The notes below the pieces were generated by a model. That model did no database searches. It was not told the origin of the DNA and saw only the letters and a list, made by a program, of their open reading frames with translations. This document shows, in pieces, positions 1,528-46,974 of a stretch of DNA of 64,000 nucleotides. The translations under genes were made by a program, and so were the position numbers. Origin of the DNA: an uncultured bacterium (GTDB taxonomy: Bacteria; Verrucomicrobiota; Verrucomicrobiia; Verrucomicrobiales; DEV007); NCBI GenBank assembly GCA_963977015.1, contig CAXBMO010000006.1:128001-192000 (forward strand), given 5' to 3'. How positions within the stretch are numbered: position 1 is the stretch's first letter; each line of letters starts with the position of its first letter.

Positions 1528-1535
1528 GATGAATC

Positions 1536-5280: not shown

Positions 5281-5450
5281 TCGGGAGGCGCAGGAGAGGT
5301 GTTGGTGCGGTTACGGGAAAAGAAAGTCGGGTCGTAATTATTGACTTGCCGCGATGTATTCACATTGTAATCTCAGGAAGCCTAGCATGAAACACGACTC
5401 CAACTGAGGGTGGGGACGTGGTTTGTAACACAACATTTGGAGGAAATTTG

Positions 5451-9270: not shown

Positions 9271-9342
9271 CGCTGACATCTCTTTTACAACTTCCTTACG
9301 CCCGTCTGACGCTTTCCGCGTCAAATTGAGCATGCTGTCTGC

Positions 9343-12994: not shown

Positions 12995-13034
12995 GTCGTT
13001 GTAAGGAAAGTTGCCGATGGTAGATCTGACCACC

Positions 13035-13481: not shown

Positions 13482-13557
13482 ATCTTGGGGCAAATTCTGG
13501 AAATTCGAAACTGATTCTTGACTTTGCGTCTCAGCAGCCAAAGGTTAGCAAATCGCC

Positions 13558-13585
13558 TAAACCCGACCAATCCTATAGGGAAATA
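13558..13585 (+). promoter_or_regulatory. Putative Rrf2-family (CymR/IscR-like) operator upstream of cysH
   Basis: TAAACCCGACCAATCCTATAGGGAAATA lies just downstream of TTGACT(13518)-N17-AAGGTT and ahead of the cys operon; resembles IscR type-1/CymR boxes. Confidence 0.55.
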
Positions 13586-13595
13586 GGTATTAACG

Positions 13596-14417: not shown

Positions 14418-14419
14418 AA

Positions 14420-15028: not shown

Positions 15029-15031
15029 GAC

Positions 15032-15937: not shown

Positions 15938-15986
15938 GCCGACGCGATATTCCCAATCTGAAATTGAACCATTTTATACTGAAGAC

Positions 15987-17264: not shown

Positions 17265-17269
17265 ATTTC

Positions 17270-17992: not shown

Positions 17993-18066
17993 AAATTTCC
18001 GACGGCAAGGTTCGTGAAGTGTGTTACAAATTGCGTTTTTGCTCCGTAACATTCATACATTTCACG

Positions 18067-27888: not shown

Positions 27889-28662
27889 ATGGGGAACTTT
27901 TTTCCACGCTGGACGAACTTCTTACCGCTCAAACTCATCGCTGCCGTCATCGTTTTAGGCACGGGAGCAGTAGCGGCAATCACCGTATATTGGACGCCCA
28001 AGTATAGCCGAGTCGGCTATCAACCGGAGCAGCCGATACCGTTTGATCATAGCCTACATGCGGGGCAGTTGGGGATGGATTGTCGTTACTGTCATACGCA
28101 GGTCGAAAATTCGTTGCACTCAAATGTTCCGACGTCGCAGACCTGCTGGAACTGTCACCAATTCGTGAAAAAGGATAGCCCGAAGCTTGCGAAGCTTCGT
28201 GAGGCGATGGCGGTAGGGACTGATGAGTATACGGGGGATCCGATCGAGTGGGTGCAGGTTCATAAAACGCCGGACTACGCCTACTTTAGTCACCAGGCTC
28301 ACGTGAATCGAGGGGTTAGCTGTGTTGAGTGCCACGGTAAGGTGAATGAGATGGAGGTTGTTCGCCACGAAGAGTCCTTGAGCATGAGTTTCTGTTTGGA
28401 TTGTCATCGGAATCCGGAAAAGGCGCTTCGCCCGTTGGATGAAATAACGAATTTGGACTGGACTGCGGAAGATGCGGATCGGGATGAGTTTTACGCTTAT
28501 CTGGCGGGTGTGACGAAAAAGTCGCCCGAGGAGTTGCTGGAGGTTGCGAAGAGTCATGGTCTGACGCCGGAAGGTGGGATGACGCAGAAAGAAATTGGCA
28601 CCCAGCTTAGAGAGGCTTGGGGTGTGCATCCGCCTGAGAGTTGCACGGCTTGTCATCGATAA
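27889..28662 (+). CDS. actA: Alternative complex III pentaheme cytochrome c
   Basis: N-terminal TM; five CxxCH (CRYCH, CWNCH, CVECH, CLDCH, CTACH); QPIPFDH. Confidence 0.92.
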   Translation: MGNFFPRWTNFLPLKLIAAVIVLGTGAVAAITVYWTPKYSRVGYQPEQPIPFDHSLHAGQLGMDCRYCHTQVENSLHSNVPTSQTCWNCHQFVKKDSPKLAKLREAMAVGTDEYTGDPIEWVQVHKTPDYAYFSHQAHVNRGVSCVECHGKVNEMEVVRHEESLSMSFCLDCHRNPEKALRPLDEITNLDWTAEDADRDEFYAYLAGVTKKSPEELLEVAKSHGLTPEGGMTQKEIGTQLREAWGVHPPESCTACHR

Positions 28663-28697
28663 TTCGCAGAACCACGAAATTTTCCCGAAGCGCCTGA

Positions 28698-31600
28698 ATG
28701 AAACGTAAGTGGCATCATCCTAAAGCTGAACGCATCGAATCGACTGTTGATCGGAAGTATTGGCGTGGATACGACGAATTGGAGGATACTCCTGAGTTCC
28801 GGGGGTGGTTGGAAAAAGAATTCCCGCGCGGTGCTGCAGAAGTTTCTGGCCCTGAAGCGGATGAAACTACTCGCCGTGGTTTCATGAAATACATGGGGGC
28901 TTCTGCTTCTCTTGCGGGTTTGGGGTTGGCGAGTTGTCGTCGCCCGGATCAATATCTGATCCCCTACAATGAGCATGTTGAGCATCTCATTCCGGGTAAG
29001 GCGTTGCTTTATTCTTCGGCGATGCCGACTGCGGATGGGTGTGTTCCATTGGTTGTGACGACCCACGAAGGGCGGCCGACAAAGGTGGACGGAAACCGTC
29101 TTCATCCTGAGCTTGCGGGTGGGACCAGCGCGTTTGTTCAGGCTTCGGTTCTCAATCTCTATGATCCGGATCGCTCGAGGGATTACCGCAAGGGTGGTGA
29201 AAAGGTTTCGGTTGGTGAGTTTGAGGAGGGGTTTTTAAATGGGTTTCGTGCTTCCGGTGGTGAAAAGGCGGCGATTCTTCTTGGGGGTAGCACTTCACCG
29301 ACTCGTGCTCGGGTTTTGGAGCAGGTGAAAGCCAAGTTTCCTCAGGTTCAGATTTTCGAATATGAGCCGCTGCTTTCTGAAGCGAAGAAACGGGCTGAGA
29401 AGCAATTGTTTGGTGAGGGTGTTTCGGCGGTTCCTCGGATTGATTTTGCGGATAAGATCCTGTCCTTGGATTGCGACTTTTTGGGGCTCGATCCGCAAGG
29501 TGAGGATCCTGCTGCGCAATGGGCAAAGCGTCGTGATCCGGAGGGTGAGATGGCTCGCTTGTATGCCGTTGAGTCTGCGTTCACGGTCACGGGTGGTATT
29601 TCTGATCACCGGCTTCGGGTGCCCGCGAGCCAGGTGGTGAAGGTTGCCGCGCTGTTTGCTAAAGCGCTCGGAGATCTGACCGGTGATGCGAAATTGAAGG
29701 CGGCGGCTGCGGGTGTGGTTTCGAAGTTTCGCGCCGAAGTTTTTGATCAGGAGTGGATCTCAGAGGCGGCCAAAGATCTGGCTGTATCGAAAGGAAAAGC
29801 GCTTGTGGTTGCCGGTTCTCGTCAGCCTGTTGCGGTTCAGGTGTTGGCTGGATTGATGAATTCAGCACTGGGTTCTGTCGGTGGTGGACGTGTGCCGGTT
29901 CAGCTTTTCAAGCATGGTCGGAAGTCGGTTCCGGGTATTGTTGAATTGGCTGCGGCGATGGGAGCTGGCGATGTCGATACGCTCATCGTGAGCGGTCCCA
30001 GTGATCCTGTTTATGATGCGCCGGCGGATTTGGGGTTTGCCGGGCTTTATGGGAAGTTGAAAAATTCTGTTCATATCGGGTTCCGTTACAACGCGACGGC
30101 CAAGGCCTCGGTATGGCATGTTCCTGGTTCGCATTATTTGGAGAGCTGGGGTGATGCAAGGACGGCGACCGGTGTCCTGTCCGTGGTGCAGCCGATGATT
30201 CTGCCGCTTTATGGCGGGGTATCCGATCTGGAGTTCCTGCTTTCGTTGGTGAAGGAAGAAGCTCCTGAAGGAGAGGTTGTGGAAGGTGGCGCGGATAAGG
30301 ATTTGGCCTACGAGGCGGTTCGTGAGACGTTTAAAGGATTGGCCAAAGGGGATGTTGAAAAAGCTTGGAATTTGACGCTTCGCGACGGATTTTTGGATGG
30401 TGTTCGTTATCAGCGTGTCAATTCGGCGCCTGCAGGTGGCGTGGTTGAGGTTGGCGACCTGCCAGCCTATCCCGGAAAGGATGCGATTGAGGTGGTGTTA
30501 AGCCCCAGTTGGCATGTTTGGGATGGTCGCTATGTCAATAATAGCTGGCTCCAGGAAGTTCCGGACCCGATCACCAAGTTGACTTGGGATAATGCGGCGG
30601 TGATGAGCAAAAAGACCGCGGATCGCATTGGTGTTACTCACGACGGGCAGATGGTTTCGATTTCTGTCGGCGGTCGTCCGGTGGAGGCTCCGGCTTTCCG
30701 TGTGCCTGGTCAGGCTGACTTCTCAATTCAACTGGCTCTGGGGTATGGGCAGGAAAATCCAGGCCGTGTTGGTGAGGGGACTGGGTTTAATGCATATCCG
30801 TTGATGACAACGGTGACTCCCTATTTTGTTCCTGGCGCGACGGTAACTCGCACCGGTGAAAATTACGAACTTGCTCCAACAGCGATTCATTGGAGTATGC
30901 AAGGTCGGGCCATCGTGCGCGAGGGAACGAAGGAGATGTTCGACGAGGATCATCATTTTGCGGTGGATGACGGAATGGATGCGCACATCCCGCCGAACAT
31001 TTCGCTCTACCAGGGTCCTGATTACTTTCAGAAAAATTCCGAGCAGACCGCACATGGTGCTCCTTTGCAGCGGACCAATGGTGGTTACCGGGTTGATGAG
31101 CATCATCAGTGGGGGATGACCATTGATCTCAATACCTGCACAGGTTGCAACGCTTGCACCATCGCGTGTCAGGCTGAGAACAATATTCCGGTTGTCGGAA
31201 AGCGCGAAGTGATTCGCGGACGCGAGATGCACTGGATTCGGATGGATCGCTACTTCTCCAGTCCGGCGGAGAAAGAGGGAGATCATTCCGGAATGACTTC
31301 GCAGAAAGTTCTGACCAACGATCGGAGAGGGCGCCCTGCTCACGACGACGATCATGTCGAAATGCTGATGCAGCCCGTTGCTTGTGTGCAATGTGAGTCT
31401 GCTCCTTGCGAAACCGTTTGTCCGGTGAACGCGACCGTTCACAGCGCGGATGGTCTCAATGCGATGACCTACAATCGTTGTATCGGCACGCGTTACTGCG
31501 CCAACAACTGCCCCTACAAGGCTCGTCGTTTCAACTACTTCGACTACAACAAGCGGAGTGTGGTTCAGGAAACCGAGAAGGCCGGCATCAAGGCGAACGA

Positions 31601-32054
31601 TCTTGATTGGGGCCCGCTGGCTGAGGCTCGCGGACTGGGAACGACAAGTCTCAAGCTGCAGAAGAACCCCAACGTGACCGTCCGGATGCGGGGTGTGATT
31701 GAAAAGTGCACCTACTGCGTGCAGAGAATTCAAGCGGCCAAGATCGATCAGAAGGCCAAGGCGCGTGATTCCAAAGATGTCCAGGTTCCCGCAAATACGG
31801 TGCGGACGGCTTGCCAGGATGCCTGCGGGTCCGGAGCCATTACCTTCGGGAATATGCTGGCCAAAGGCGACGATATCCGGAAGCAGAAGGGAACGCCGGA
31901 GAAGAATTTTGAAGATGCGAATCCGAGGAGCTATGACCTGCTCAAGTATATCGGAACGCGCCCGCGCACCAGTTATCTGGCCAAAGTGCGCAACCCCAAT
32001 TCGAAGATGCCCGGTGCTGAGCATGTCGGGCAGGCAACCGCGCAGATGCACTAA
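28698..32054 (+). CDS. actB: ACIII molybdopterin-fold + Fe-S subunit
   Basis: KYWR, internal Tat motif TRRGFMK plus lipobox LASC, GRPTKVDGN; C-terminal CTGCNAC, CVQC..PC..VCP, CIGTRYCANNCP, EKCTYC. Confidence 0.94.
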   Translation: MKRKWHHPKAERIESTVDRKYWRGYDELEDTPEFRGWLEKEFPRGAAEVSGPEADETTRRGFMKYMGASASLAGLGLASCRRPDQYLIPYNEHVEHLIPGKALLYSSAMPTADGCVPLVVTTHEGRPTKVDGNRLHPELAGGTSAFVQASVLNLYDPDRSRDYRKGGEKVSVGEFEEGFLNGFRASGGEKAAILLGGSTSPTRARVLEQVKAKFPQVQIFEYEPLLSEAKKRAEKQLFGEGVSAVPRIDFADKILSLDCDFLGLDPQGEDPAAQWAKRRDPEGEMARLYAVESAFTVTGGISDHRLRVPASQVVKVAALFAKALGDLTGDAKLKAAAAGVVSKFRAEVFDQEWISEAAKDLAVSKGKALVVAGSRQPVAVQVLAGLMNSALGSVGGGRVPVQLFKHGRKSVPGIVELAAAMGAGDVDTLIVSGPSDPVYDAPADLGFAGLYGKLKNSVHIGFRYNATAKASVWHVPGSHYLESWGDARTATGVLSVVQPMILPLYGGVSDLEFLLSLVKEEAPEGEVVEGGADKDLAYEAVRETFKGLAKGDVEKAWNLTLRDGFLDGVRYQRVNSAPAGGVVEVGDLPAYPGKDAIEVVLSPSWHVWDGRYVNNSWLQEVPDPITKLTWDNAAVMSKKTADRIGVTHDGQMVSISVGGRPVEAPAFRVPGQADFSIQLALGYGQENPGRVGEGTGFNAYPLMTTVTPYFVPGATVTRTGENYELAPTAIHWSMQGRAIVREGTKEMFDEDHHFAVDDGMDAHIPPNISLYQGPDYFQKNSEQTAHGAPLQRTNGGYRVDEHHQWGMTIDLNTCTGCNACTIACQAENNIPVVGKREVIRGREMHWIRMDRYFSSPAEKEGDHSGMTSQKVLTNDRRGRPAHDDDHVEMLMQPVACVQCESAPCETVCPVNATVHSADGLNAMTYNRCIGTRYCANNCPYKARRFNYFDYNKRSVVQETEKAGIKANDLDWGPLAEARGLGTTSLKLQKNPNVTVRMRGVIEKCTYCVQRIQAAKIDQKAKARDSKDVQVPANTVRTACQDACGSGAITFGNMLAKGDDIRKQKGTPEKNFEDANPRSYDLLKYIGTRPRTSYLAKVRNPNSKMPGAEHVGQATAQMH

Positions 32055-32069
32055 TTTTTACTGACCCAG

Positions 32070-33455
<1,386 letters not shown>

Positions 33456-33457
33456 CA

Positions 33458-34018
33458 TTGAGCGATTCCGAGAAATTAACCAGAGCCTGGGGCTATGTGG
33501 CGGAGTTCGAAAGCCCGAAAGCGGTTTTCGATGCTGCTAAAAAGTGTCGTGAAGAGGGATTTAAGCGATGGGATGTCCATTCGCCGTTCCCGATCCACGG
33601 GATGGATGCCGCGATGGGATTGGGGCCCTCCTACCTTTCAAAGTTCGTCTTCTGCGGAGGACTTTTTGGGACGTTGACAGCCCTGGCCCTCCAGTTTGGA
33701 ACGCAGGTTGGCCTTTATCCGACGATTGTTCAGAACAAGCCGGCGAACCTTTGGACGATACCGGCGTTCTTCCCAATCACGTTTGAGCTGACGATTCTGT
33801 TCGCCGCATTCACCATTCTTTTTGGCCTGTTGATCATCATCAAGCTGCCGAGACTTCATCATCCACTGTTTGGATCCAAGTCCTTCACCAAGTTTTCGGA
33901 CGACGGCTTCATTATCGCGATCGAAGCGCGGGATCCCAAATTCTCCAGGGAGAAAACCAAGGAGTTTCTCCTCTCCGTGGGAGCGACCGAAGTTGAACTC
34001 GTGGAGGAAGAACTCTGA
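33458..34018 (+). CDS. actD: ACIII subunit D (DUF3341)
   Basis: AEF, SPFPIHGMD, FFPITFELTILFAA; TTG start. Confidence 0.92.
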   Translation: MSDSEKLTRAWGYVAEFESPKAVFDAAKKCREEGFKRWDVHSPFPIHGMDAAMGLGPSYLSKFVFCGGLFGTLTALALQFGTQVGLYPTIVQNKPANLWTIPAFFPITFELTILFAAFTILFGLLIIIKLPRLHHPLFGSKSFTKFSDDGFIIAIEARDPKFSREKTKEFLLSVGATEVELVEEEL

Positions 34019-34034
34019 GACTTTTTTAGGAACA

Positions 34035-34733
34035 ATGCGCTGGTTTTTCCTCATTACTTTTCTATTTGCAGTCCTCTGGGTCGGCCTTTGGGGCTGGCAG
34101 GGACAGACGTCGACCAATAATCCGGTCGAGGTGTTCCAGGACATGGATCATCAATACAAACTGCGTCCCCAGAAGCAGAGCGACTTCTTTGCTGACGGAA
34201 TGGTCAGTCGCAAGCCGGTGGAAGGAACCGTTCCCATGGGATACGTGGTTCCGGACAAGGCGATTTCCAAAGGTGGAAAGACCGATCCCCGGCTTGGCTT
34301 GTCCAATGACTACTACAGCACGGGACTGATCGGAGAGTTTTTCGGCTCCGGATTCCCTGAAGGGATTGAGGTCAGTGAGGACTTGCTGGATCGCGGTGAG
34401 CAGCGATTTGATATCTATTGCAGCGTTTGTCACGGGATGAGCGGTTACGGGAAAGGGGTTGTCGCCTCGTTCTGGTTGGGAGGAACACTTCCGCCGACCG
34501 CGAATCTGATTGATCCGAGAGTTGCTGAAATGCCGGAGGGACAGATTTTCCACACCATCACCAACGGGAAAGGCCTGATGGGGCCTTATGGAGGAAATAT
34601 CCCGCCAAATGATCGCTGGGCGATTGTGGCCTATTTACGTGCTCTTCAATTGAGCCAGAAGGCAGATCTGAAAAATCCGAAGGTGAAGGCTGCCTTCGAT
34701 GCCGCAGCCCAGAGCACCGAATCTACTCAATGA
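34035..34733 (+). CDS. actE: ACIII monoheme cytochrome c
   Basis: DMDHQYK..PQ...FF.DG...R.PV.GTV, CSVCH, distal Met in GLMGPY, RWAIVAY; start reset. Confidence 0.92.
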   Translation: MRWFFLITFLFAVLWVGLWGWQGQTSTNNPVEVFQDMDHQYKLRPQKQSDFFADGMVSRKPVEGTVPMGYVVPDKAISKGGKTDPRLGLSNDYYSTGLIGEFFGSGFPEGIEVSEDLLDRGEQRFDIYCSVCHGMSGYGKGVVASFWLGGTLPPTANLIDPRVAEMPEGQIFHTITNGKGLMGPYGGNIPPNDRWAIVAYLRALQLSQKADLKNPKVKAAFDAAAQSTESTQ

Positions 34734-36280
34734 GCGCCCACAAATCTGTTAAAGACCTCCCGAAAGGTGGAGAAAAGATCGACGGCAGCAAGGTTGCTGG
34801 AGCCAAGATGTTGTTTGCCCTGCTTGGGGTGATCGGCTTGGGAGGTATCCTGATTGCTTTCTTCATGGACGGTGAAAGTCATGAAGACGTTGCCGACCAG
34901 GCATCCTATTCTTATTTGTTCGCCTTTACCTTTGCTCTCACTTTGGGAATGGGCGGTTTGTTTTGGACCATTCTGCATCACGCGACCAACTCGGGATGGG
35001 GGATTTCAGTCCGTCGCCAAATGGAGAACATCATGGGGCTGCTGCCGTGGGTGTTCGTGCTTTCGATTCCTTTTTGGATTCCCAGCATTCGCGAAGATCT
35101 CTGGGAGTGGGAAGCCAAGGCGGTAAAACTGAAGGCTGAGGCCGGGAAGCTTGTTTCAGGTCACCTTGCGACGGAAAATGCTGAGTGGTCCCATCAGGTA
35201 GAGGATCTCAAGGGAAAAATCGCCGAACGAAAGGCATTGCTCGGAAATCTTGAGACGGGTGGGGGCGTAACGCCCGGAGACCTTGAGGCGATCAAGGAAC
35301 AAAGCATCGATCTCGAAGCAAAACTCGCGGTGCTTGAATCTGAGAAGCCGAATGCGAAGTCGGTTCTCAAACACCTGATGAAAGTCGGTGATGAAGAGCA
35401 TGGTCTTCAGGGAGATACCCTTTTGACGGAGAAATGGTTCTTCTACTTTAAGGACACCAAATTGCGCCTCGTTCTCTACACGGTCATTTTCGTGCTGATC
35501 GTCTATCTTCTAAGAAGTTGGTCGATTCGAAACGATAAGATCGCCGGAGAGGACTTGTTCAAACGCTCTCGTTACTGGAGCTGCTTCTTCCTGATTCCGT
35601 TTGCGGCTGGCTACACCTTCATGGTGATCGATTTCCTCATGTCCCTGAACTACAAGTGGTTCTCGACCATGTGGGGAGTTTACCTGTTTGCCGGCGCCGC
35701 CCTCAATGGGATGGGACTGTTGGTAATTGTTATCACCTGGTTGCGCAGCAAGGGTTATCTGAAGGAAGTCGTCAGTGACGAGCACTATCACCTGATGGGG
35801 AAACTGATGTTTACCTTCTGTGTGTTCTGGGCCTACATCGCATTCAGTCAGTATTTCTTGATTTGGTATGCCAACATTACGGAAGAGACGGAATTCTTCC
35901 TCCTGCGGAACAGCGGCGAGTGGCGAACTGTGAGTATGGCCCTCGTGGTGGGACACTTCTTCATCCCGTTTGTGATTCTTCTATGGCGGGGTGTGAAGAA
36001 GAAGGCCCATTTGATTTGCACGGTAGCGGTTTGGAACCTGGTGATGCACGTTGTTGATGTTTACTGGATCGTGATTCCCGAGCGCGCACCGAGCCTGAGT
36101 GCCTTGGCTCATTCTAAAGAGCCTGTTCTCTGGTATCCAGGAGCTCTCCTCTTTGATCTTTTAGCCTTGGTCGGCGTTGTCGGTGTCTTGGGATACGTTC
36201 TCATCCACATCATTCAGAAATCGAGTCTCTACCCCTGTGGTGACCCTCGGTTGGAAGAGTCAATTAACGTTGTGAACTAG
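34730..36280 (+). CDS. actF: ACIII membrane subunit F (with coiled-coil insertion)
   Basis: WFSTMWG, HLMGKLMF.F..FWAYIAFSQY.LIWYANI.EET, terminal DPRL.ES. Confidence 0.92.
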   Translation: MSAHKSVKDLPKGGEKIDGSKVAGAKMLFALLGVIGLGGILIAFFMDGESHEDVADQASYSYLFAFTFALTLGMGGLFWTILHHATNSGWGISVRRQMENIMGLLPWVFVLSIPFWIPSIREDLWEWEAKAVKLKAEAGKLVSGHLATENAEWSHQVEDLKGKIAERKALLGNLETGGGVTPGDLEAIKEQSIDLEAKLAVLESEKPNAKSVLKHLMKVGDEEHGLQGDTLLTEKWFFYFKDTKLRLVLYTVIFVLIVYLLRSWSIRNDKIAGEDLFKRSRYWSCFFLIPFAAGYTFMVIDFLMSLNYKWFSTMWGVYLFAGAALNGMGLLVIVITWLRSKGYLKEVVSDEHYHLMGKLMFTFCVFWAYIAFSQYFLIWYANITEETEFFLLRNSGEWRTVSMALVVGHFFIPFVILLWRGVKKKAHLICTVAVWNLVMHVVDVYWIVIPERAPSLSALAHSKEPVLWYPGALLFDLLALVGVVGVLGYVLIHIIQKSSLYPCGDPRLEESINVVN

Positions 36281-36287
36281 AATTTCG

Positions 36288-36878
36288 ATGAGTAAGCAAC
36301 TTCATCCCGCAGACAAACCACTTCTCAGACTCGGCGCCTATCTTGGCGGTTTCGTCGCCATTTTCGCTTTCGCTTTGTTGGGGCTCCTCATTGCCAAAGC
36401 TCCCGTTCGAAGCAGCGAACCTTCCTTTTCGGAGGAGACAGCCAATGCTCGGAAAGCGATCGCTGATAAAGTCAAGGCAGCAGATGTCGCTGCCCTTACC
36501 GAGCCGGAGTTGATTGATGAAGCTTCCGGGGTTGTTCGAATTCCGATTGCAGCGGCCAAAGACGTGGTTCTTGAAGAACTCCAGAGCCTGAAGCCGAAGA
36601 AGTCTGCCATTCCCCTTCCGGGTTCGGCTGCCGCAACCAAGCTCATGCAAGAGCAGTCCGCGCCGGCTCCAGCAGCCAAAGCTGAGCCAAAGGAGGAAGC
36701 GCCCAAGAAACCCAAGGCCAAACCACAAGCAGCGGAGAAGAAAACGCCTGCTGCTGCGGAGCCGAAGCAACCAAAGAAGCCTCAGCAAAAGCCGAAGGCG
36801 GACGCTGTGCCGACGGACGAGGCCAAGCCTGCTTCCAAGCCTGAAACTCCCGCGAAACCATCAAACCCGCAGGGTTAG
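36288..36878 (+). CDS. ActG-like single-TM protein with Pro/Lys/Ala-rich tail
   Basis: One TM helix, GVVRIPI..A motif, position directly after actF. Confidence 0.6.
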   Translation: MSKQLHPADKPLLRLGAYLGGFVAIFAFALLGLLIAKAPVRSSEPSFSEETANARKAIADKVKAADVAALTEPELIDEASGVVRIPIAAAKDVVLEELQSLKPKKSAIPLPGSAAATKLMQEQSAPAPAAKAEPKEEAPKKPKAKPQAAEKKTPAAAEPKQPKKPQQKPKADAVPTDEAKPASKPETPAKPSNPQG

Positions 36879-36883
36879 TTTTT

Positions 36884-38356
36884 ATGAGTTCCGATACCAA
36901 CGAAATCGATATTAACCTTCGCGCGCAGATTGATCGCTCACTGCGCTTTCCGTTGCTATTTTTCTTCACGAGCGCCGCTGTATGGTTGGTTTTCGGCACG
37001 GCGTTGGGGTTTGTCAGCTCCTTGAGCTTGAATTTCCCCGGCCTGTTTGAAGGATGCGCGTTCCTGTCCTACGGCCGGGTCTTTCCAGCTCAAATGAATG
37101 CGCTGGTATACGGTTGGGGAATGCAGGCCGGTTTTGGAGTCGCCCTGTGGATTATGGCTCGTTTGAGTCGCTCCACCTTGAAAAACCCGGCGACAGTCAT
37201 CGTCGCCGGCCATGTCTGGAATGCGATGATCCTGTTTGGCTTGTTCTCGATCCTTTTTGGTTGGGGGACTTCAATTATGTGGTTGGATTTTCCGAAGGCC
37301 TTCGCACCTGCCGTGGTCGGAACCTTTATCGTGATCATGATCTGGGCGTTGGGAATGTTTGCGGCACGCCGCGACCGCGAAGCCTACGTATCCCAATGGT
37401 ACATTCTCGCCTCTATTCTCTGGTTTCCTTGGATTTACCTCACCGCCAATTGGTTCATCCACATTGATGAAGGTGCGGCCGTGATCAAGGCTGGGATTGA
37501 TGCCTGGTATGTCAGCAACATGATTTACATGGTGCTCGCCCCAATCGCGTTGGCTTCTGCCTACTATATTGTTCCCAAGGTCATTGGTCGGCCGATCTAT
37601 AGCAACAGTATCGCAGTGTTTGGATTTTGGACGCTGGCGATTTTCGCCGGTTGGACGGGGATGAATCGAATCATGGGCGGGCCTCTTCCGGCTTGGATGC
37701 CCACCTTTGGAAGCGCCGCTGCCATATTCCTGCTCATTCCTGCGTTGGCAGTTGCCTTTAACCTGGTAAAGACGCTCGGTTCACGTTCGGATTGGATCAG
37801 CTACAGTCCTTCGTTGCGATTCACCATTTTCGGAGTCTTCGCCTTTGTCGTGACCGTGGCGCTCGGCGCGATCATGTCCATCTTCCCTGCCGGAAAGATC
37901 TTTCAATTCACTCATGCGCAGGCCGGCTACGACCTGCTCGCGGTATATGGGTTTTACTCAATGACCATTCTTGGTGCGATCTACTTTATCGTTCCCCGGA
38001 TTGTCGGTTGCGAGTGGATCAACGGGGGCTGGATTCGATTCCATTTCTGGTTTTCGGCCTATGGAACCATCGCCATTGTGGCGTTCATGGTGTTCGCCGG
38101 CATGGCCCAGGGTTACATCATCAACAACTGGGGAGAGGATTTCTTAACCTCCGTCGAACGAGGAAAGCCCTACTTGGCTTCGCTCTGTTTGGGATGGGGA
38201 CTCATCGTTATTTCAAACATCGCCTTCCTGTTTCACCTCGGTCTGATGGCGATTAAGCGCGGCCGAACCGATGAGGTCGGGCCGACCTTGATTCATAAAC
38301 AGCCAGAGGATTACTTTGCAGAAACAGAACTAAGCAAGGAAGGAGCAAACGCATGA
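36884..38356 (+). CDS. CcoN-like (cbb3 subunit I fold) protein lacking all metal ligands
   Basis: CcoN landmarks SYGR, YVSQWY, YYIVPK...RPIYS, LPAW, GAIYFIVPR, HFW retained; His ligands substituted; followed by ccoO-like gene. Confidence 0.88.
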   Translation: MSSDTNEIDINLRAQIDRSLRFPLLFFFTSAAVWLVFGTALGFVSSLSLNFPGLFEGCAFLSYGRVFPAQMNALVYGWGMQAGFGVALWIMARLSRSTLKNPATVIVAGHVWNAMILFGLFSILFGWGTSIMWLDFPKAFAPAVVGTFIVIMIWALGMFAARRDREAYVSQWYILASILWFPWIYLTANWFIHIDEGAAVIKAGIDAWYVSNMIYMVLAPIALASAYYIVPKVIGRPIYSNSIAVFGFWTLAIFAGWTGMNRIMGGPLPAWMPTFGSAAAIFLLIPALAVAFNLVKTLGSRSDWISYSPSLRFTIFGVFAFVVTVALGAIMSIFPAGKIFQFTHAQAGYDLLAVYGFYSMTILGAIYFIVPRIVGCEWINGGWIRFHFWFSAYGTIAIVAFMVFAGMAQGYIINNWGEDFLTSVERGKPYLASLCLGWGLIVISNIAFLFHLGLMAIKRGRTDEVGPTLIHKQPEDYFAETELSKEGANA

Positions 38357-39000
38357 ACAGTTTTCGCGGTTTCATTTTATGTTTAGGGGCAACTTTCGCC
38401 CTCCCTTGGATCTTCCTGATCGTGGTTCCTTTCAAGGCGACCTCCAATCTGGATGTCGTAGAGTTTGAGGTCGAAGGCGAGAAGGTGACCTATCCACCAG
38501 CGCGTGTCGGAGCCGTTCGCGGCGCGGAAGTTTATGCCAGGAATGGTTGCGCCTACTGCCATACACAGATGGTTCGGCCAACGTATGCCGGGACTGATAT
38601 GTGGAGACCCGGTTGGGCTGGAAGAGGGGGCGAGGAATCAACCCTGCGTTCCACCATCCCACAAGATTACCTTGGAGAGAAGTATGCTTATCTGGGAGCC
38701 TTGCGCCACGGACCTGATTTGAGCAACGTCGGTTGGCGGATCACCGACCGGAAATGGCACTACGAGCATTTGTATGATCCTCGCTCGATCAAACCGACAA
38801 CCATCATGCCGAGCTACCGCAACCTTTTCGAGAAACGCCGGGTGATTGGGCAGCTCTCCGCAGATGCGATCGAGACGTTTGAGAAGAATGGCGAAACCTG
38901 GGAAGTGGTTCCCAGCAATGACGCAAAGTCTCTGGTCGATTACTTGATGTCGCTGAAGAAGGACTTTCTCGTACCCGACAGTCTTGCAGCAACGAAATAA
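38353..39000 (+). CDS. CcoO-like (cbb3 subunit II) monoheme cytochrome c
   Basis: G.EVY..NGCAYCHTQMVRP, GPDLSNVG, HLYDPR, IMPSY distal Met. Confidence 0.9.
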   Translation: MNSFRGFILCLGATFALPWIFLIVVPFKATSNLDVVEFEVEGEKVTYPPARVGAVRGAEVYARNGCAYCHTQMVRPTYAGTDMWRPGWAGRGGEESTLRSTIPQDYLGEKYAYLGALRHGPDLSNVGWRITDRKWHYEHLYDPRSIKPTTIMPSYRNLFEKRRVIGQLSADAIETFEKNGETWEVVPSNDAKSLVDYLMSLKKDFLVPDSLAATK

Positions 39001-39774
39001 ATGGCGATGGACGAAGATCACAATCAGAACTTGGATTACGGCGAACGCTCAAGCGTTGCGGATTTGAACTCAGCGGTGAAGCGTGAAAAATCGGAGCCTA
39101 CCGCAGGGTTGGAGCCCGTTTCGATCTGGGCTTTCATCATTGCGGGATTGGTGATGGTCGCTGGCGGTGCCTACCTCGGCGCGTATTCAGCGGGTGGCTT
39201 GAGCATGAAGAACACTTACGCGGTTGCCAACTACGTTCCAGCGGAACGCCCGGTGCTTGAAGGATCTGTTGTGGTCGAGGATACGCGACCTTGGATTGAC
39301 AAGTGGATGGCTGGTGGGAAATCCGTCTATGCCACCTGTCAGGCTTGTCACCAGACCAACGGAAACGGGATGCCTGGCCAATTTCCTCCTCTTGGCGATT
39401 CAGAGTGGGTGGTGAACGGCACTGAACGACTTGGCGCAATCCTGTTTCCCGGGATTCAAGGGCCGATGAGCGTCAAAGGATCGACTTACAATGGGTTGAT
39501 GCCAGCCCAAGGCGCAATGTTAAGCGACAAGCAGATCGCACAGGTCATGACCTATATCCGCCGCAGTTTCGGAAATGATGCGTCTGTTGTGACGGAAGAA
39601 ATGGTGAAGAATGCGCGGGCCAAGTATGGTTCCCGAACCGCACCATGGTCCGAAGCAGAACTTCTGGAAATTCCTCAAGACGCGATGCTTCCGGGCGCTG
39701 AAGTTGATTTGCAGACAGGGGAGCCGTTGGGAGGCGGGGAATCTGGAGGTGACGAACCTGCATCGGACGTATAG
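39001..39774 (+). CDS. Membrane-anchored monoheme cytochrome c
   Basis: TM helix, CQACH, FPPL, YNGLMPA, IAQVMTYIR. Confidence 0.9.
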   Translation: MAMDEDHNQNLDYGERSSVADLNSAVKREKSEPTAGLEPVSIWAFIIAGLVMVAGGAYLGAYSAGGLSMKNTYAVANYVPAERPVLEGSVVVEDTRPWIDKWMAGGKSVYATCQACHQTNGNGMPGQFPPLGDSEWVVNGTERLGAILFPGIQGPMSVKGSTYNGLMPAQGAMLSDKQIAQVMTYIRRSFGNDASVVTEEMVKNARAKYGSRTAPWSEAELLEIPQDAMLPGAEVDLQTGEPLGGGESGGDEPASDV

Positions 39775-39838
39775 GATGCGTCCCGCTTGCCTCGAGATAC
39801 GAAACAAGTAAGCCTAGAAGAACAACCACCATTTTTTC

Positions 39839-41758: not shown

Positions 41759-41794
41759 CTCGCAGAACGCAGTCTAGTGACAAGATAGAATAAG

Positions 41795-43294
41795 ATGGAA
41801 ATTCCATACACCGTCAATCCCCGTCGCGATACGGGCCTCTTCAATGCAAAAGTTGGCATCTGGCTGTTTTTGGCATCAGAGGTGATGCTCTTTGGGGGAT
41901 TGTTCTCCGCCTACATATTCCTGCGCACCGGCGTTCGTGAAGGCGTTGATATTCCTTGGCCGAACGGACTCGACGTCCATGGCTGGATGTACTGGATCGG
42001 GTTCATCAACACCCTGATTTTGATTGCCTCGAGTGTGTTCGTCGTCATGGCGTGGGCGCAACTCAAGCTTCGGAATTACGGCAAGTATCAGCTCTACATG
42101 GCTGGCGTGTTGATCTGTTCCGCTCTCTTCATGGTCAACAAGGGCTATGAATACAACTCCAAGCTGAATCATCACTTCGGCATCTATCTCACGGATGGGA
42201 CGCTTCTGGATGGTGCCCTCGTTAAGGATGAAAAGCATGGCATCAAGGGCGACGAAATTGTTTTCCAGGCCGATGAGGTGGATTTTGCCTTGGTTGGGAC
42301 TGGTGTGTTTGGAAAGGCCGATCCCTACTTCCTCGATTTCGCAGAGAACAAGGATCTGACCTATGACATCCAACTCTTCAAAGCGGAGTCGGCGGATGGA
42401 AAACTGGAGTTCGTGGAAGGCGAAATGAAGTCAGGTTTGTCGGCCGACCTTATCCCCGGCGTGCTTGATGTTCATATTGCGGAGTTGGAGAAAGCGGCTG
42501 CGGCAGATGCCGTCGAGCGGAAGAAGGCTTTGAAGCAGAAGATTCGCGAAGCTGAGGGAGCTGCAAAGATTGCCCTTCAGAGGGAATTGGCTCTGCTCCG
42601 TCCCATCAAGATTCCAGGCAAGGTCGTTGGAAAGCCTTCCGAGCCTGCCAACTACGTATTTAAGCGGAAGGAAATTTTGGGCGGTAAGCCAGGCAAGGAA
42701 TCGATCGCATTTTTCCGCGGCAATGGGCTGCGGGGAACCTTGGTTGATGACACCGTGGATATCGAGGTTCACACCATCGATCTTCAAATGGTGGCGGTGG
42801 ATACCGAATCGATGGCCTGGGGCAATGACATTTGGTCTCATGGCGAAGGCGAGGCGATGAAAGAAGGCTACCTCCATCACAAGGCGGAAGCGGAAGAGCA
42901 CTACCGGGAATTCATTCAGCAAGGGTATTTCCCGGCTGACAAGATTTACCGCTGGCATCACGCACATGCGGCTCACTCCAAAGCCGAGACCGGAGGAGAG
43001 GACAGCCACAGCGAGTATTCAGTCGTTTCTGTTCCCGGTGATCAGGTGAGAAGGATGGGGAACCATGGACCCAAGTTTGGCCCTTACTATGCAATTTACT
43101 TCACGATGACGGCCTTACACGGACTTCACGTGGTTGGTGGAGCGATTGTGCTTGGCTATTTCCTCTTCTTTGGTCGGAAGCTCTACAAGAAGAATCCTGA
43201 ACACCTTGCCAACCGCGTCGAGGTTGGAGGTTTGTTCTGGCACTTTGTGGATCTGGTTTGGATCTTCCTCTTCCCGCTCTATTATCTCCTTTAA
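41795..43294 (+). CDS. ctaE: Cytochrome c oxidase subunit III with large soluble insertion
   Basis: WLFLASEVMLFGGLF, NTLILIASS, K.YEY, then YF.MTALHGLHV and WHFVDLVWIFLFP, separated by ~300 aa hydrophilic sequence. Confidence 0.9.
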   Translation: MEIPYTVNPRRDTGLFNAKVGIWLFLASEVMLFGGLFSAYIFLRTGVREGVDIPWPNGLDVHGWMYWIGFINTLILIASSVFVVMAWAQLKLRNYGKYQLYMAGVLICSALFMVNKGYEYNSKLNHHFGIYLTDGTLLDGALVKDEKHGIKGDEIVFQADEVDFALVGTGVFGKADPYFLDFAENKDLTYDIQLFKAESADGKLEFVEGEMKSGLSADLIPGVLDVHIAELEKAAAADAVERKKALKQKIREAEGAAKIALQRELALLRPIKIPGKVVGKPSEPANYVFKRKEILGGKPGKESIAFFRGNGLRGTLVDDTVDIEVHTIDLQMVAVDTESMAWGNDIWSHGEGEAMKEGYLHHKAEAEEHYREFIQQGYFPADKIYRWHHAHAAHSKAETGGEDSHSEYSVVSVPGDQVRRMGNHGPKFGPYYAIYFTMTALHGLHVVGGAIVLGYFLFFGRKLYKKNPEHLANRVEVGGLFWHFVDLVWIFLFPLYYLL

Positions 43295-43297
43295 GTC

Positions 43298-43720
43298 ATG
43301 GCAAGTTCACCCGAAGAAATTCGTAAACACATCAACACCTACTGGAAGGTTGGTGCCGCGCTCTGCGTGTTCACCTGCATCACCCTTGCGCTGGGGATTT
43401 GGCATCCGTTTGATTTTGGTTTTCCCGGTGTCGACACCATCGATATTGTTGTGGGTTTGTTGGTCGCCACCATCAAAACCAGCTTGGTGATGCTGATCTT
43501 CATGCACTTGAACCACGAGCGGGGTTTGATCTACAAGACCCTCCTGTTCACCGTTGCGTTCGCCATTAGTTTGATGGGCCTCTCGTTGTTTGCGAAGGCT
43601 GACCCGATCAAAGCGCATTCCGATGTTACGGTAAAAGTGGACCGCGAAGGCGAGAAGGAACGTATTATTGGTAGTGCGAACCAACCTCACTCCGATTCGA
43701 CGAAGGAGAGTTCCCACTAA
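43298..43720 (+). CDS. ctaF: Cytochrome c oxidase subunit IV family
   Basis: Three TM segments, ATIKTSLVMLIFMHL. Confidence 0.88.
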   Translation: MASSPEEIRKHINTYWKVGAALCVFTCITLALGIWHPFDFGFPGVDTIDIVVGLLVATIKTSLVMLIFMHLNHERGLIYKTLLFTVAFAISLMGLSLFAKADPIKAHSDVTVKVDREGEKERIIGSANQPHSDSTKESSH

Positions 43721-43747
43721 GGAAACACCCATCCGAAACTTCCAACC

Positions 43748-43951
43748 ATGAGTCTGAAGCAATTCCATGTCTTTTTCATCACACTAGCAGTGCTCTGCAC
43801 GTTTAGTTTTGGTGTTTGGGCACTCTTTGCTCCATCAGACATCGTGGGAACATGGGGAAGAGTGGGTGGTTTCTTAAGCGCCGCCATCGGAGTTGCCCTG
43901 GTTCCTTATGGCATCTGGTTCGTCCGGAAATCGAAGAACATCATCACGTAA
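43748..43951 (+). CDS. Small two-TM protein in oxidase operon
   Basis: MSLKQFHVFFI..., two hydrophobic helices, operonic position. Confidence 0.7.
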   Translation: MSLKQFHVFFITLAVLCTFSFGVWALFAPSDIVGTWGRVGGFLSAAIGVALVPYGIWFVRKSKNIIT

Positions 43952-43983
43952 TCGCACGCGGCCACCCCTGACCTATACTTCCC

Positions 43984-44184
43984 ATGGACCTTCTTAATTT
44001 AGATACCATTCTAGCCTGTCCCGCTTGCCGGTTTAATGACTCCAGTGTAACCCAGGCCGCCAATCTTGCGATCGGGGTCATGGTGATGGTGGTTTTTGGA
44101 GTTCTCAGTGCCTTCATAGCCTTTATTGTCAAACTAGCAAAGGGCGAGCGCGCTGTAGCCGCCGTGGAAACACGCCAGCATTAA
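43984..44184 (+). CDS. Small membrane protein with CPxC motif
   Basis: LACPAC followed by a TM helix, immediately upstream of subunit II. Confidence 0.65.
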   Translation: MDLLNLDTILACPACRFNDSSVTQAANLAIGVMVMVVFGVLSAFIAFIVKLAKGERAVAAVETRQH

Positions 44185-44225
44185 TTGTGTGAGACTGGCT
44201 GGGAAGCCTCAATTGATTTAGTAAA

Positions 44226-45020
44226 ATGGATCCTATTCTTGGTTTTAGTATTAACGAACTTCTTGGACAGCCTGAGTTGGCTTCAAAGCATGGTGGTCAG
44301 ATCGATCACATGCTGGAAGTCGTTCACTGGTTCATGGCCATTCTCGGAATTGGATGGACCATTTTCTTTTTCACCGTTCTCTTCAAATTCAACAAGAGGG
44401 CGAATCCGGCGGCAAGTTACAAGGGAGTAACCTCGCATTTTACGACCCACCTTGAGGTGCTGGTTGTGATTGTCGAAGTCGTTCTGCTCTTGGGTTTCGC
44501 GTTTCCACTCTGGGCCAAGCGCGTTGAGGACATTCCGAGCGAGGACGATCCCAATGTGGTGCGAGTCCGTGCTGTCGGAGAGCAATTCCGATGGAATTTT
44601 CATTATGCAGGAGCTGACGGTCGTTTTGGTTTGGTCAAGCCGGAGAACATCAACGGGACCAATCCTGTTGGTTTGGTCAACGCCGATCCGAATGCCTTTG
44701 ACGACTTCCTCGCGAACGAGCTGATCTTGCCAAAGGATCGGATGTGTATTGTTCAGGTATCCTCCAAAGACGTCATTCATAACCTGGCGCTGATCCCCAT
44801 GCGGATTCAGCAGGACGCGATTCCAGGAATGGAGATTCCGATGTATTTCACCCCAACCAAGACCGGTCGTTGGGACATTGTTTGTGCCCAGCTCTGTGGT
44901 GCAGGCCATGCCAAAATGGTCGCCTTTCTGGACGTTCAGGAACAAGAGGAGTTTGATTCATGGTTTACCCAGAAAACCGAATCTGCTGCTGCCAAGGCAA
45001 CCGCTGCGGCTGCCCAGTAG
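44226..45020 (+). CDS. ctaC: Cytochrome c oxidase subunit II (CuA, no fused cytochrome c)
   Basis: Two TM, QFRWNF.Y, DVIH, CAQLCGAGHAKM CuA motif; ends without CxxCH. Confidence 0.94.
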   Translation: MDPILGFSINELLGQPELASKHGGQIDHMLEVVHWFMAILGIGWTIFFFTVLFKFNKRANPAASYKGVTSHFTTHLEVLVVIVEVVLLLGFAFPLWAKRVEDIPSEDDPNVVRVRAVGEQFRWNFHYAGADGRFGLVKPENINGTNPVGLVNADPNAFDDFLANELILPKDRMCIVQVSSKDVIHNLALIPMRIQQDAIPGMEIPMYFTPTKTGRWDIVCAQLCGAGHAKMVAFLDVQEQEEFDSWFTQKTESAAAKATAAAAQ

Positions 45021-45113
45021 TCTTTTCGTTGGGGATGAGACGGCCCGGGAACTCCTGGGGCTGACACTCATGATCCAAACCCGCGCGAGGCATGATGCTC
45101 GGGCTGTTGAACT

Positions 45114-46112
45114 ATGTCTCTCGTCCTCAGAACTGCTCAAGTAGCGCTCGTTTCGGTCATCGTGCTCGTCTTTGTCGGCGCGATTGTGAGGTCATCCGGC
45201 GCTGGATTGGGATGCCCTGATTGGCCGACTTGCTGGGGACGCATCATTCCTCCCACCAAAGCGGAGCAGATCGATCCGGAGAAGCTGGACATTCCCAGAT
45301 TCAAGCGATACGCGGAGCGCCACGGCATCGACCCCGACACGGTTGAGCGAGAATCGGTTCTGGGTAGCTTCAATGCGGTTCACACTTGGACGGAGTTCAT
45401 CAATCGTCTCACATCGTTGCCCTTGGGGGTATCGACCCTGCTCCTGGCCATCTTCTCGTTTCGGGCAAGCCGTCATCGCAAGTGGGTAGTCGCCTTGGCT
45501 TGGTTTGCCCTCCTCGATGTTCTCTTCAATGCGTGGATGGGGGCCGAAGTCGTCCGCAGTGGATTGAAGCCGGGCATCATCACCCTTCACATGGCGCTCG
45601 CATTGCTGCTGATCTGTGTGCTGGTCACCATCACATGGTTGTCCCGCACCCCAAAGGTGTTGGACATTGGTGAAACCCGCCATCTCCGATGGGTGTCGCT
45701 TCTCTTTTTCGTCTGTCTCTTCGCGGAAGGCATCTTCGGGAGCCAGGTGCGCGAAATGACCGACCAACTGGCCAAAGCGGCTGGAGATATGCCGCGAAGT
45801 GAGTGGATTGGCGCGCTTGCCTCCACCTCCATTTACCAGATTCACCGGAGCTTTTCGTGGTCACTGCTCGTTTCCGCCGGAGCCGTGTTCTGGCTTGCCC
45901 GGCGCAGCAGGAGCGGCGCTGAGGCTTGGGAGCCCAAAGTGATCCTTGGAATCGTTCTCGCCATGATGTGCATGGGAATCATTCTCGCCCACGTTGCGAT
46001 TTATCCCGTCGTTCAGGTCCTCCACGTTGGACTCACCGCAATTTTGCTTGCCGTAACCTGGAAATGGGTGCTGGAAGTCTTATCCGCCCCACGCCATGAG
46101 CACTCCATCTGA
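45114..46112 (+). CDS. ctaA: Heme A synthase (COX15/CtaA)
   Basis: GAGLGCPDWPTC, EFINR, TLHM, IHR, VLHV. Confidence 0.9.
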   Translation: MSLVLRTAQVALVSVIVLVFVGAIVRSSGAGLGCPDWPTCWGRIIPPTKAEQIDPEKLDIPRFKRYAERHGIDPDTVERESVLGSFNAVHTWTEFINRLTSLPLGVSTLLLAIFSFRASRHRKWVVALAWFALLDVLFNAWMGAEVVRSGLKPGIITLHMALALLLICVLVTITWLSRTPKVLDIGETRHLRWVSLLFFVCLFAEGIFGSQVREMTDQLAKAAGDMPRSEWIGALASTSIYQIHRSFSWSLLVSAGAVFWLARRSRSGAEAWEPKVILGIVLAMMCMGIILAHVAIYPVVQVLHVGLTAILLAVTWKWVLEVLSAPRHEHSI

Positions 46113-46974
46113 TATTCCTTCTCGCGCCGATCTCGTCGAGCTCACCAAAGCTCGGTTGAGCATCATGGTGGTCGTGACAACGGGGGCCGGCTTCATCTCC
46201 GGTTGGCCTGACGAGACGCCATTCCATTTCGCGCTTCTGTTTCACACCGTTTTTGGAACGATTTTGTCCGCCTTTGGCGCCGCCGTCTTCAATCAGCTGA
46301 TGGAGATTCAGGCCGACAAGAAGATGAAACGCACGGCAGACCGGCCGTTGCCTGCGGGGCGCATTCCGCCGGCTGGTGCGTTTGTGATTGGTTGGGTGTT
46401 GTCCGCCTTTGGCGTGGTTCACCTCGGTGTCAAAGTCAATACCTGGGCCGCGGTCATCGCCGGCCTTACGTTGGTGGTTTACATCTTCATCTACACGCCC
46501 CTCAAGCGCCGTTCGAGTTGGAACACGATTGTCGGCGCGGTCGCGGGTGCGCTTCCTCCGGTGATCGGCTGGGTTGGAGCGGGCCGGGGCTTGGATGCTG
46601 GAGCACTCTGGTGGTTTGCCCTGCTGTTCTTTTGGCAGCTTCCCCACTTCTTCGCCATCAACTGGATTTACCGGGAAGAGTATCAGAAAGGGGGCTTCAT
46701 CATGTTGGCCAATCAGGATGACGATGGGAGCAAGACATCGCGTTGGGCGCTCATCTTTGCCGTCTCGTTGGTGCTGCTGGCGTTCGTTGCACCCGTGGCT
46801 GAAATCACGCGGTGGTGGTTTGTCTTTCCCGGAGCCCTTGCGGCGGGATGGCTCGTGATGCTGTCGCTCAAGTTCGTCAAAACGCCCGAACGTTCGACCG
46901 GACGCCGTCTCTTTTTCGGGACCTTGATCTATCTGCCGATCGTGCTTGTTGCAGCGCTGCTCGCGAAGCCGTAG
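46096..46974 (+). CDS. ctaB: Protoheme IX farnesyltransferase (heme O synthase)
   Basis: LTKAR, NQ..E...D..M.RT..RPLP, YTPLKR, WQLPHF. Confidence 0.95.
   Translation: MSTPSDIPSRADLVELTKARLSIMVVVTTGAGFISGWPDETPFHFALLFHTVFGTILSAFGAAVFNQLMEIQADKKMKRTADRPLPAGRIPPAGAFVIGWVLSAFGVVHLGVKVNTWAAVIAGLTLVVYIFIYTPLKRRSSWNTIVGAVAGALPPVIGWVGAGRGLDAGALWWFALLFFWQLPHFFAINWIYREEYQKGGFIMLANQDDDGSKTSRWALIFAVSLVLLAFVAPVAEITRWWFVFPGALAAGWLVMLSLKFVKTPERSTGRRLFFGTLIYLPIVLVAALLAKP

Follow-up and report, generated by a model that had tools for sequence, protein, structure and literature searches.

A cbb3 subunit I homologue without haem or copper ligands, encoded between alternative complex III and aa3 oxidase in Verrucomicrobiales: a candidate electron-transfer platform

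Introduction

How do electrons pass from alternative complex III (ACIII) to the CuA centre of an aa3 oxidase if a relay haem is present in neither of them, and why does an oxidase subunit stripped of its metal ligands lie between the genes of the two? Both questions are raised by a gene cluster at positions 27889-46974 of a 64,000-nucleotide stretch (the window) of contig CAXBMO010000006.1, from an uncultured bacterium of the Verrucomicrobiales. Positions in the cluster are given as positions in the window. The gene order is actABCDEF, a gene for a one-helix protein, psN, psO, cytc, coxI-III-IV, two genes for small membrane proteins, coxII and ctaA-ctaB. Here psN (CcoN*) denotes the homologue of CcoN, subunit I of cbb3-type oxidases; psO denotes the CcoO-like cytochrome and cytc a membrane-anchored monohaem cytochrome c. 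Together these three are referred to as the module.

Two ACIII-oxidase supercomplexes have been solved. In Flavobacterium johnsoniae the step from ACIII to aa3 is made by a sixth haem, which ActA bears on a mobile domain at its N terminus, and in Rhodothermus marinus the relay is the cytochrome domain of caa3 subunit II (PMC8552683, PMC5928083). In the window neither ActA nor CoxII carries the relay haem of those systems. We consider it on balance probable that the cluster encodes a chain from quinol to oxygen built from three parts: ACIII, a one-time cbb3 oxidase that is now a non-catalytic platform, and an aa3 oxidase. The narrower idea that the module works as an adaptor between ACIII and aa3 is plausible but unproven.

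Loss of ligands and constraint in psN

The psN protein is a full-length homologue of CcoN with the 12-helix COX1 fold. It matches PF00115 with 141 bits and aligns with CcoN of Pseudomonas stutzeri (3mk7_A, E 4.4e-30) over residues 28-436 (409 residues aligned), and it misses the equivalog cut-off of TIGR00780 (121.2 bits, cut-off 583.15). The haem and CuB histidines of 3mk7_A, H60, H207, H257, H258, H345 and H347, correspond in psN to Q70, S211, N261, R262, Y349 and L351, respectively. None of the six is kept, which bears out the original description of the gene as a ligand-less ccoN. As judged from this alignment, psN cannot bind haem b, haem b3 or CuB, and it would be unable to reduce oxygen because every ligand of these three centres is gone.

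At least 844 relatives of psN were found, mostly from Verrucomicrobia and under the name "cbb3-type cytochrome c oxidase subunit I". In species genomes at least 591 relatives were confirmed among 600 stretches examined, and the best 80 loci of this genome scan, all from Verrucomicrobiales or unclassified Verrucomicrobia by title, form the set used below as the Verrucomicrobiales loci. All six histidines are present in 0 of these 80 psN sequences and neither H345 nor H347 in any of them, and H60 is kept in 67.

Loss of ligands has not been followed by decay of the gene. Compared with the nearest relative (locus L077, 87% identical), the nonsynonymous divergence (dN) of psN is 0.082, the fourth lowest of the 18 genes. 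Only ActC (0.050), CoxI (0.061) and ActD (0.067) have lower values, and ActA, ActB and CoxII have higher ones; the value for ActE is an artefact of an over-long open reading frame (ORF). Because synonymous sites are saturated against the nearest relatives (proportion of synonymous differences, pS, 0.68-0.81), dN is used for ranks and no dN/dS ratio is given. In addition, the psN ORF stays full-length at 40-50% identity across the order. Thus, psN is kept under strong constraint and is among the slowest-evolving proteins of the cluster.

Conservation of this strength would also be expected if psN had gained a new activity, either by holding a cofactor through other residues or by forming an ion or proton path coupled to ACIII. 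The retention of H60, the first haem b ligand, in most Verrucomicrobiales sequences agrees with such a gain, as does the debate about proton pumping by ACIII (PMC8498564). However, the window protein and its two nearest relatives have glutamine at H60, and the second axial ligand is kept in no sequence. Furthermore, no new invariant column of histidine, methionine or cysteine was found except H387, which is also present in solved CcoN. A new activity is therefore regarded as very improbable.

CcoO, the anchored cytochrome and their predicted assembly

The start of psO overlaps the stop of psN by 4 bases, and psO and cytc abut. The psO protein scores above the cut-off for FixO (PF02433, 73.9 bits) and below that of TIGR00781 (71.5 bits, cut-off 200.65). 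Its CAYCH and MP motifs align with those of solved CcoO (8smr_F, E 5.1e-16), in keeping with the intact haem motif and methionine first noticed in the gene, and C66, C69 and H70 are invariant in 29 aligned sequences.

The third protein of the module is not a CcoP. It has one CQACH motif and scores 32.5 bits for the dihaem CcoP family TIGR00782, which has a cut-off of 179.95. Among solved structures its haem domain comes closest to that of Cu nitrite reductase, a tethered cytochrome domain (E 1.5e-18), followed by Thermus c552 (E 1.1e-17); CcoP matches reach only E 8.6e-7 to 9.5e-4. Thermus c552 and the nitrite reductase domain both donate electrons to copper centres.

The original prediction held that psN carries CcoO and the extra cytochrome c. 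A structure prediction of psN, psO and cytc as one complex scored 0.76, and the best of 3 controls scored 0.06. Solved complexes attained this mark in 116 of 157 cases and mismatched pairs in 2 of 215. The prediction runs shared at least 65% of contacts, and the partner had a predicted local distance difference test score (pLDDT) of at least 74. Since cbb3 structures have already been solved, the pass may partly reflect likeness to them. The confident contacts of cytc involve its residues 25-84 (helix and linker) against psN helices and psO, so that cytc is predicted to be seated on psN and psO through this part of the protein. None of the confident contacts involves its haem domain, as expected for a tethered, mobile domain. 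Thus, the anchoring part of the proposal agrees with the model.

With its confident contacts on psN helices, cytc may need psN as no more than an anchor. This leads to a second alternative, in which psN and psO are remnants without an electron role, kept for anchoring cytc, for assembly of neighbouring proteins or for translational coupling, and electrons go from ActE to the anchored cytochrome or directly to CuA. The overlapping and abutting genes are what translational coupling would call for. The low dN rank and undiminished length of psN, however, do not suit a remnant, and an invariant haem motif in CcoO is unexpected for a haem that carries no electrons. This alternative is improbable, if less so than a new activity.

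Conservation within Verrucomicrobiales

The order of genes around the module was followed through the 80 Verrucomicrobiales loci. psO follows psN in all 80, and cytc is next in 79; in the one exception the contig ends first. Downstream of cytc lies coxI in 76 loci, and the contigs of the other 4 end before coxI. Upstream, actF precedes psN in 65 loci and the remaining 15 start too near psN to tell. No differing gene order was seen in any of the 80 loci; the succession of ACIII, module and aa3 is kept wherever the contigs allow, which is the linkage that the original prediction had called for. Comparisons of loci indicate that the linkage of the cluster genes is far beyond chance.

In the same loci, one CxxCH is present in 80/80 psO and 77/79 cytc sequences, CoxII has none in 62/62, and ActA has five in most loci.

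Other oxidases in the genome

It was also considered that psO might serve a canonical CcoN encoded elsewhere, with psN irrelevant. The genome (95% complete) has three COX1 matches: coxI, psN and an 805-amino-acid frame on another contig (G000:C4:239581-241812; loci L002 and L004). That frame does have the six histidines, so a ligand-bearing CcoN exists in the genome. However, it is a fusion of CcoN with its own CcoO (FixO domain, 267.6 bits), and it is the real cbb3-type oxidase of this genome. Because the canonical CcoN is fused to its own CcoO, the CcoO of the window is not borrowed by it. In addition, psN and psO, which overlap in the window, occur together in all 120 loci examined. A canonical partner for psO is exceedingly improbable and was dropped as an explanation. 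The fused frame is followed by a 355-amino-acid ORF.

The module across the class

Matches were found in 122 of 401 genomes of the phylum, with family tallies of 26/26, 34/35 and 4/4; one small-genome genus of the window's own order gave 0/28. For the wider sample, loci of 20 kb were taken from 40 genomes among the other 121 with a match; these were picked for spread over families and scores and not at random. In 33 of the 40 wider loci a full set of ACIII genes immediately precedes psN. The remaining 7 comprise two with partial ACIII (L038 and L060), one cut by the contig end and four of another class without ACIII. psO and cytc follow psN in all 36 wider loci of the class. Thus, the constant neighbour of the module throughout the class is ACIII and not aa3.

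Several of the exceptional loci differ in their own ways. In L060 (genome G132) about 7 kb, at about 10800-18000 of that locus, separate psN and actF. In L038 (genome G342, 1-6700) only actE and actF were found upstream of psN, and actA-D were not found in the preceding 6.7 kb. The four loci of another class (L057, L058, L065 and L066, family f43) have an intact CcoN-CcoO with no adjoining ACIII and no third cytochrome gene, and they branch outside the ACIII-linked group.

The six histidines are kept in 21 of the 40 wider loci and lost in 19. By its ligand residues, the ACIII-linked CcoN-CcoO-cytochrome c set would therefore be a genuine oxidase of the cbb3 type in roughly half of the lineages sampled and cofactor-less in the others. 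A tree of 59 rows, which leaves out two very long rows, requires at least 4 changes of ligand state, forced by its starred branches. A single ancient loss was considered and dropped: a smaller tree needs 2 changes and the 59-row tree at least 4. The ligand-less Verrucomicrobiales clade has as its nearest outgroup L043, with intact ligands and coxI-III-IV-II downstream, and the sister of another ligand-less pair is L042, also intact, with coxII-coxI downstream. In these two lineages aa3 adjacency appears to have preceded ligand loss.

Both ligand states may also meet within a single genome or genus. In genome G366 a ligand-less copy is linked to ACIII and an intact copy lies apart from it (L157 and L158), and the two genomes of genus g12 have opposite ligand states, both ACIII-linked (L159 and L161). 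Such a pattern suggests that genes were paralogous, that operons were exchanged or that the loss is very recent. Since G366 has both states and g12 has one per genome, old paralogy may be part of it.

Ten of the 11 genomes with a ligand-less psN and no adjoining oxidase were searched for a further COX1 frame, and all 10 have one (445-541 bits). Such a frame was also present in 6 of 8 searched genomes of the intact state and absent from 2. These counts are consistent with ligand loss being tolerated where an A-type oxidase exists, with a high base rate.

Proposed electron path and its alternatives

In the chain that we favour, psN would be a non-catalytic membrane platform of ACIII that retains one or two haems of the c type where the haem wire of ActA and ActE ends. 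Electrons would enter from menaquinol at ActC and pass through the Fe-S centres of ActB and the five haems of ActA to ActE, and from there to CcoO, to the tethered c552-like cytochrome, or to both. In this organism the haems of CcoO and cytc would then hand them to CuA of the co-encoded aa3 oxidase, and on to haem a, haem a3/CuB and oxygen. These haems would replace the relay haem carried by ActA in F. johnsoniae and by subunit II in R. marinus.

Several observations weigh against this proposal. First, A-type oxidase genes adjoin the module in only 11 of the 40 wider loci. Secondly, 11 of the 19 ligand-less wider loci have no adjoining oxidase genes, and the intact loci L043 and L042 do adjoin A-type oxidase genes. 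Third, the raw counts (lost and adjacent 21, lost and not adjacent 14, intact and adjacent 2, intact and not adjacent 18) suggest an association of loss with adjacency, but aa3 adjacency is unchanged with ligand state in about 3.8 of 4 phylogenetically independent contrasts; because the contrasts show no difference, the raw association rests on one clade. In addition, the presence of an A-type oxidase elsewhere in a genome says little, since such oxidases are common whatever the ligand state. No CxxCH is present in the psO ORFs of L054 and L073 (2/40) or in the cytc ORFs of L126 and L138 (2/79), where frameshifts are possible. Lastly, CuA might receive its electrons straight from ActE, or from the anchored cytochrome with no need of psN and psO.

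Much of this would follow if the module were a general electron-output part of ACIII with no specific tie to aa3 and no three-part supercomplex. The tethered cytochrome would then serve any acceptor present, such as aa3, the fused cbb3 or periplasmic reductases. The prevalence of ACIII over A-type genes beside the module, the loss of ligands both with and without an adjoining aa3, and the additional fused oxidase in this genome all suit a general output. Within Verrucomicrobiales, however, the gene after cytc is never any other than coxI, CoxII is uniformly without haem c, and the insert in CoxIII, peculiar to this order and probably periplasmic, might offer a surface for contact. A general output is held to be unlikely, though it is the most serious of the alternatives. 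Of the adaptor proposal, the linkage within Verrucomicrobiales stands; a class-wide tie to aa3 does not, as the module follows ACIII.

The proposed chain can also be extended. A cofactor-less subunit I may have arisen at least four times in one class, bridging ACIII and aa3 in a three-part megacomplex with a two-haem relay. This would be a third independent wiring of ACIII to CuA and the first pseudo-enzyme of subunit I. We regard this extended form as possible but doubtful.

Genes of the cluster

The 18 ORFs of the cluster (Table 1) were all found as originally listed, tightly spaced and on one strand, with intergenic gaps of -17 to +93 bases. The genes on either side are unrelated: genes for a hydrolase and a 2-oxoglutarate oxygenase precede the cluster, a GNAT gene follows it, and the opposite strand carries a gene for an SNF2 helicase. 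Between 27500 and 47499, 4 promoter-like sites were observed where 9.8 were expected, and terminator-like matches lie mostly inside genes.

Table 1. Genes of the cluster, with positions in the window.
Feature	Position	Strand	Evidence
actA, pentahaem cytochrome c, 257 aa, short form	27889..28662	+	5 CxxCH, solved-chain matches
actB, fused molybdopterin-like + 4Fe-4S subunit, 1118 aa	28698..32054	+	Fer4, TIGR04519
actC, NrfD-type quinol-binding membrane subunit	32070..33455	+	PF03916
actD	33458..34018	+	PF11821
actE, monohaem cytochrome c, N-terminal membrane helix	34035..34733	+	CSVCH, PF13442
actF, second NrfD-like membrane subunit	34730..36280	+	solved ActF chains
one-helix protein, 196 aa, Lys/Pro/Ala-rich tail, actG position	36288..36878	+	no family match
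psN, 490 aa, cbb3 subunit I homologue without ligands	36884..38356	+	3mk7_A alignment
psO, CcoO-like monohaem cytochrome c	38353..39000	+	PF02433 FixO
cytc, membrane-anchored c552-like monohaem cytochrome c, 257 aa	39001..39774	+	CQACH
coxI, A-family subunit I, 639 aa	39839..41758	+	PF00115
coxIII, five-helix type, 499 aa, ~300-aa insert	41795..43294	+	COX3 matches at both ends
coxIV	43298..43720	+	PF03626, TIGR02229
small two-helix membrane protein, 67 aa	43748..43951	+	no family match
small membrane protein, 66 aa, N-terminal CPAC motif	43984..44184	+	no family match
coxII, CuA site, no cytochrome c domain	44226..45020	+	PF00116
ctaA, haem A synthase	45114..46112	+	PF02628
ctaB, haem O synthase	46096..46974	+	TIGR01473

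The actA-F gene set of ACIII is complete. ActA matches 8k9e_A (E 2.5e-56) and 6f0k_A (E 9.4e-55). The count of five haems given in the original prediction is correct; the suggestion that this is a reduced number is not, since five is the common form, as in R. marinus. ActB scores above the cut-off for the TAT-variant signal TIGR04519 and also has QrcB/QrcC-like matches. ActC matches NrfD with 78.9 bits and is 57-74% identical in related loci. The ActD match (197 bits) is the sole one in the genome. ActE has a single haem motif, and its start is most likely the ATG at 34035 and not 33870. ActF has no Pfam match but aligns with the solved ActF chains 6f0k_F (E 2.2e-47) and 6btm_F (E 4.5e-24).

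The label "actG-like" for the one-helix protein comes only from its position and its single membrane helix. No Pfam, NCBIfam or PDB match was found, and the best solved-chain row (E 0.38) is at chance level. The protein was detected by tblastn in 13 of the 80 Verrucomicrobiales loci. In 24 other loci, of the Luteolibacter/Prosthecobacter type (for example L115, L118, L124 and L128), a small extra cytochrome c gene replaces it between actF and psN.

The oxidase genes encode an aa3 enzyme. CoxI scores 440.7 bits for PF00115 and 568.9 bits for TIGR02891 (below the cut-off of 670.75), and its translation has the motifs HPEVY, WAHHMY and GHFHY, read by eye as those of the haem a, haem a3 and CuB ligands. 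CoxII scores 118.5 bits for TIGR02866, below the cut-off. Its translation has the CuA motif H...CAQLCGAGHAKM (H...CxxxCxxxHxxM) and no CxxCH, which makes the oxidase aa3 and not caa3 and upholds the earlier view that subunit II has no fused cytochrome c. CoxIV scores 40.8 bits for PF03626 and 41.1 bits for TIGR02229, the latter above the cut-off. The genes for haem A synthesis are present, with CtaA at 153.9 bits and CtaB at 247.3 bits, above the TIGR01473 cut-off.

CoxIII owes its length to the insert, which lies between helices 3 and 4 and spans about residues 125-425. The insert is found in all Verrucomicrobiales loci (CoxIII of 436-584 amino acids) and is absent in other orders (200-313 amino acids). 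From the five-helix CoxIII topology it is probably periplasmic. In an AF2 model of the whole protein (pLDDT 82.4) the insert is folded with confidence and shows beta-rich portions as well as a long helix. A Foldseek search with this model gave no match at E <= 0.001. The best VIA-align result for the whole protein was 7q21_E (Z 12.2, rmsd 5.8, 181 aligned), driven by the helical COX3 part.

The two small membrane proteins between coxIV and coxII have no Pfam or NCBIfam match. The 67-amino-acid protein has tblastn matches at the same place in most related loci, and the CPAC protein has them in a subset of the Verrucomicrobiales loci.

Implications

In a review and two genome papers, genes near ACIII in verrucomicrobial methanotrophs and Opitutaceae are named "cbb3-type", and in one strain ACIII adjoins aa3 genes as well as cbb3. 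The cbb3 is counted there as a third, high-affinity oxidase (PMC8498564, PMC6688271, PMC11102522). One of the papers also describes a Methylacidiphilum strain whose ACIII genes are interrupted by a nos cluster (PMC11102522). In our wider sample, psN of locus L059 (genome G279, 9283-10728 of that locus) is identical to a protein of Methylacidiphilum kamchatkense Kam1 that is recorded as cbb3 subunit I. Only one of the 6 histidines is kept against 9g6b_A, and the match to solved CcoN is only E 6.7e-6. The gene order of this locus is ACIII-psN-psO-cytc-CoxI-CoxIII-CoxII. Because the L059 protein is identical to the M. kamchatkense record, the "cbb3" of verrucomicrobial methanotrophs would be of the ligand-less kind. 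A partial search of the literature on ACIII, cbb3/CcoN and Verrucomicrobia found no description of a ligand-less CcoN.

This bears on annotation. CcoN serves as a marker gene for high-affinity respiration under microaerobic conditions, and that use is wrong for Verrucomicrobiales and for the Methylacidiphilum protein checked. If so, the three terminal oxidase types published for verrucomicrobial methanotrophs become one fewer. The proposed chain, if true, would provide a natural example of an oxidase core retained purely as a scaffold. It would also offer a testable answer to how ACIII and aa3 are connected when neither has a relay haem, and cultured members exist in Luteolibacter, Prosthecobacter, Verrucomicrobium and Methylacidiphilum.

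Comparison with known systems

The cluster can be compared with five known systems. First, the ACIII-aa3 supercomplex of F. johnsoniae (6BTM) likewise has actABCDEF followed by aa3 and a subunit II without cytochrome c. Electrons pass directly there, with no soluble carrier, and would do so in the proposed chain as well. Its ActA has 444 amino acids and a sixth haem; the much shorter pentahaem ActA of the window aligns only to residues 250-404 of that chain (6btm_A). The window also has psN, psO and cytc between ACIII and aa3, unlike F. johnsoniae.

Secondly, the ACIII-caa3 supercomplex of R. marinus (6F0K) shares with the window a pentahaem ActA, a monohaem ActE and oxidase genes downstream, and the window ActA and ActF are most similar to the R. 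marinus-type chain. Subunit II of R. marinus, however, has a cytochrome c domain, and the window CoxII has none.

Third, the cbb3 oxidase CcoNOP of P. stutzeri (3MK7) resembles the module in the homology of psN to CcoN, in the haem site of CcoO and in the order of N, O and a third cytochrome. It differs in that psN retains 0/6 ligands and reaches a fifth of the TIGR00780 cut-off, and in that the third subunit of the window is monohaem and c552-like and not the dihaem CcoP.

Fourth, the ACIII-"cbb3" neighbourhoods of Methylacidiphilum and Opitutaceae are the same neighbourhood as that of the window, with the cbb3 there read as an oxidase.

Lastly, Thermus c552 (1C52) and the Cu nitrite reductase domain (2YQB, 3ZIY) are the nearest solved relatives of the haem domain of cytc. 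In the window, by contrast, this domain follows an N-terminal membrane helix, which packs against psN in the predicted complex.

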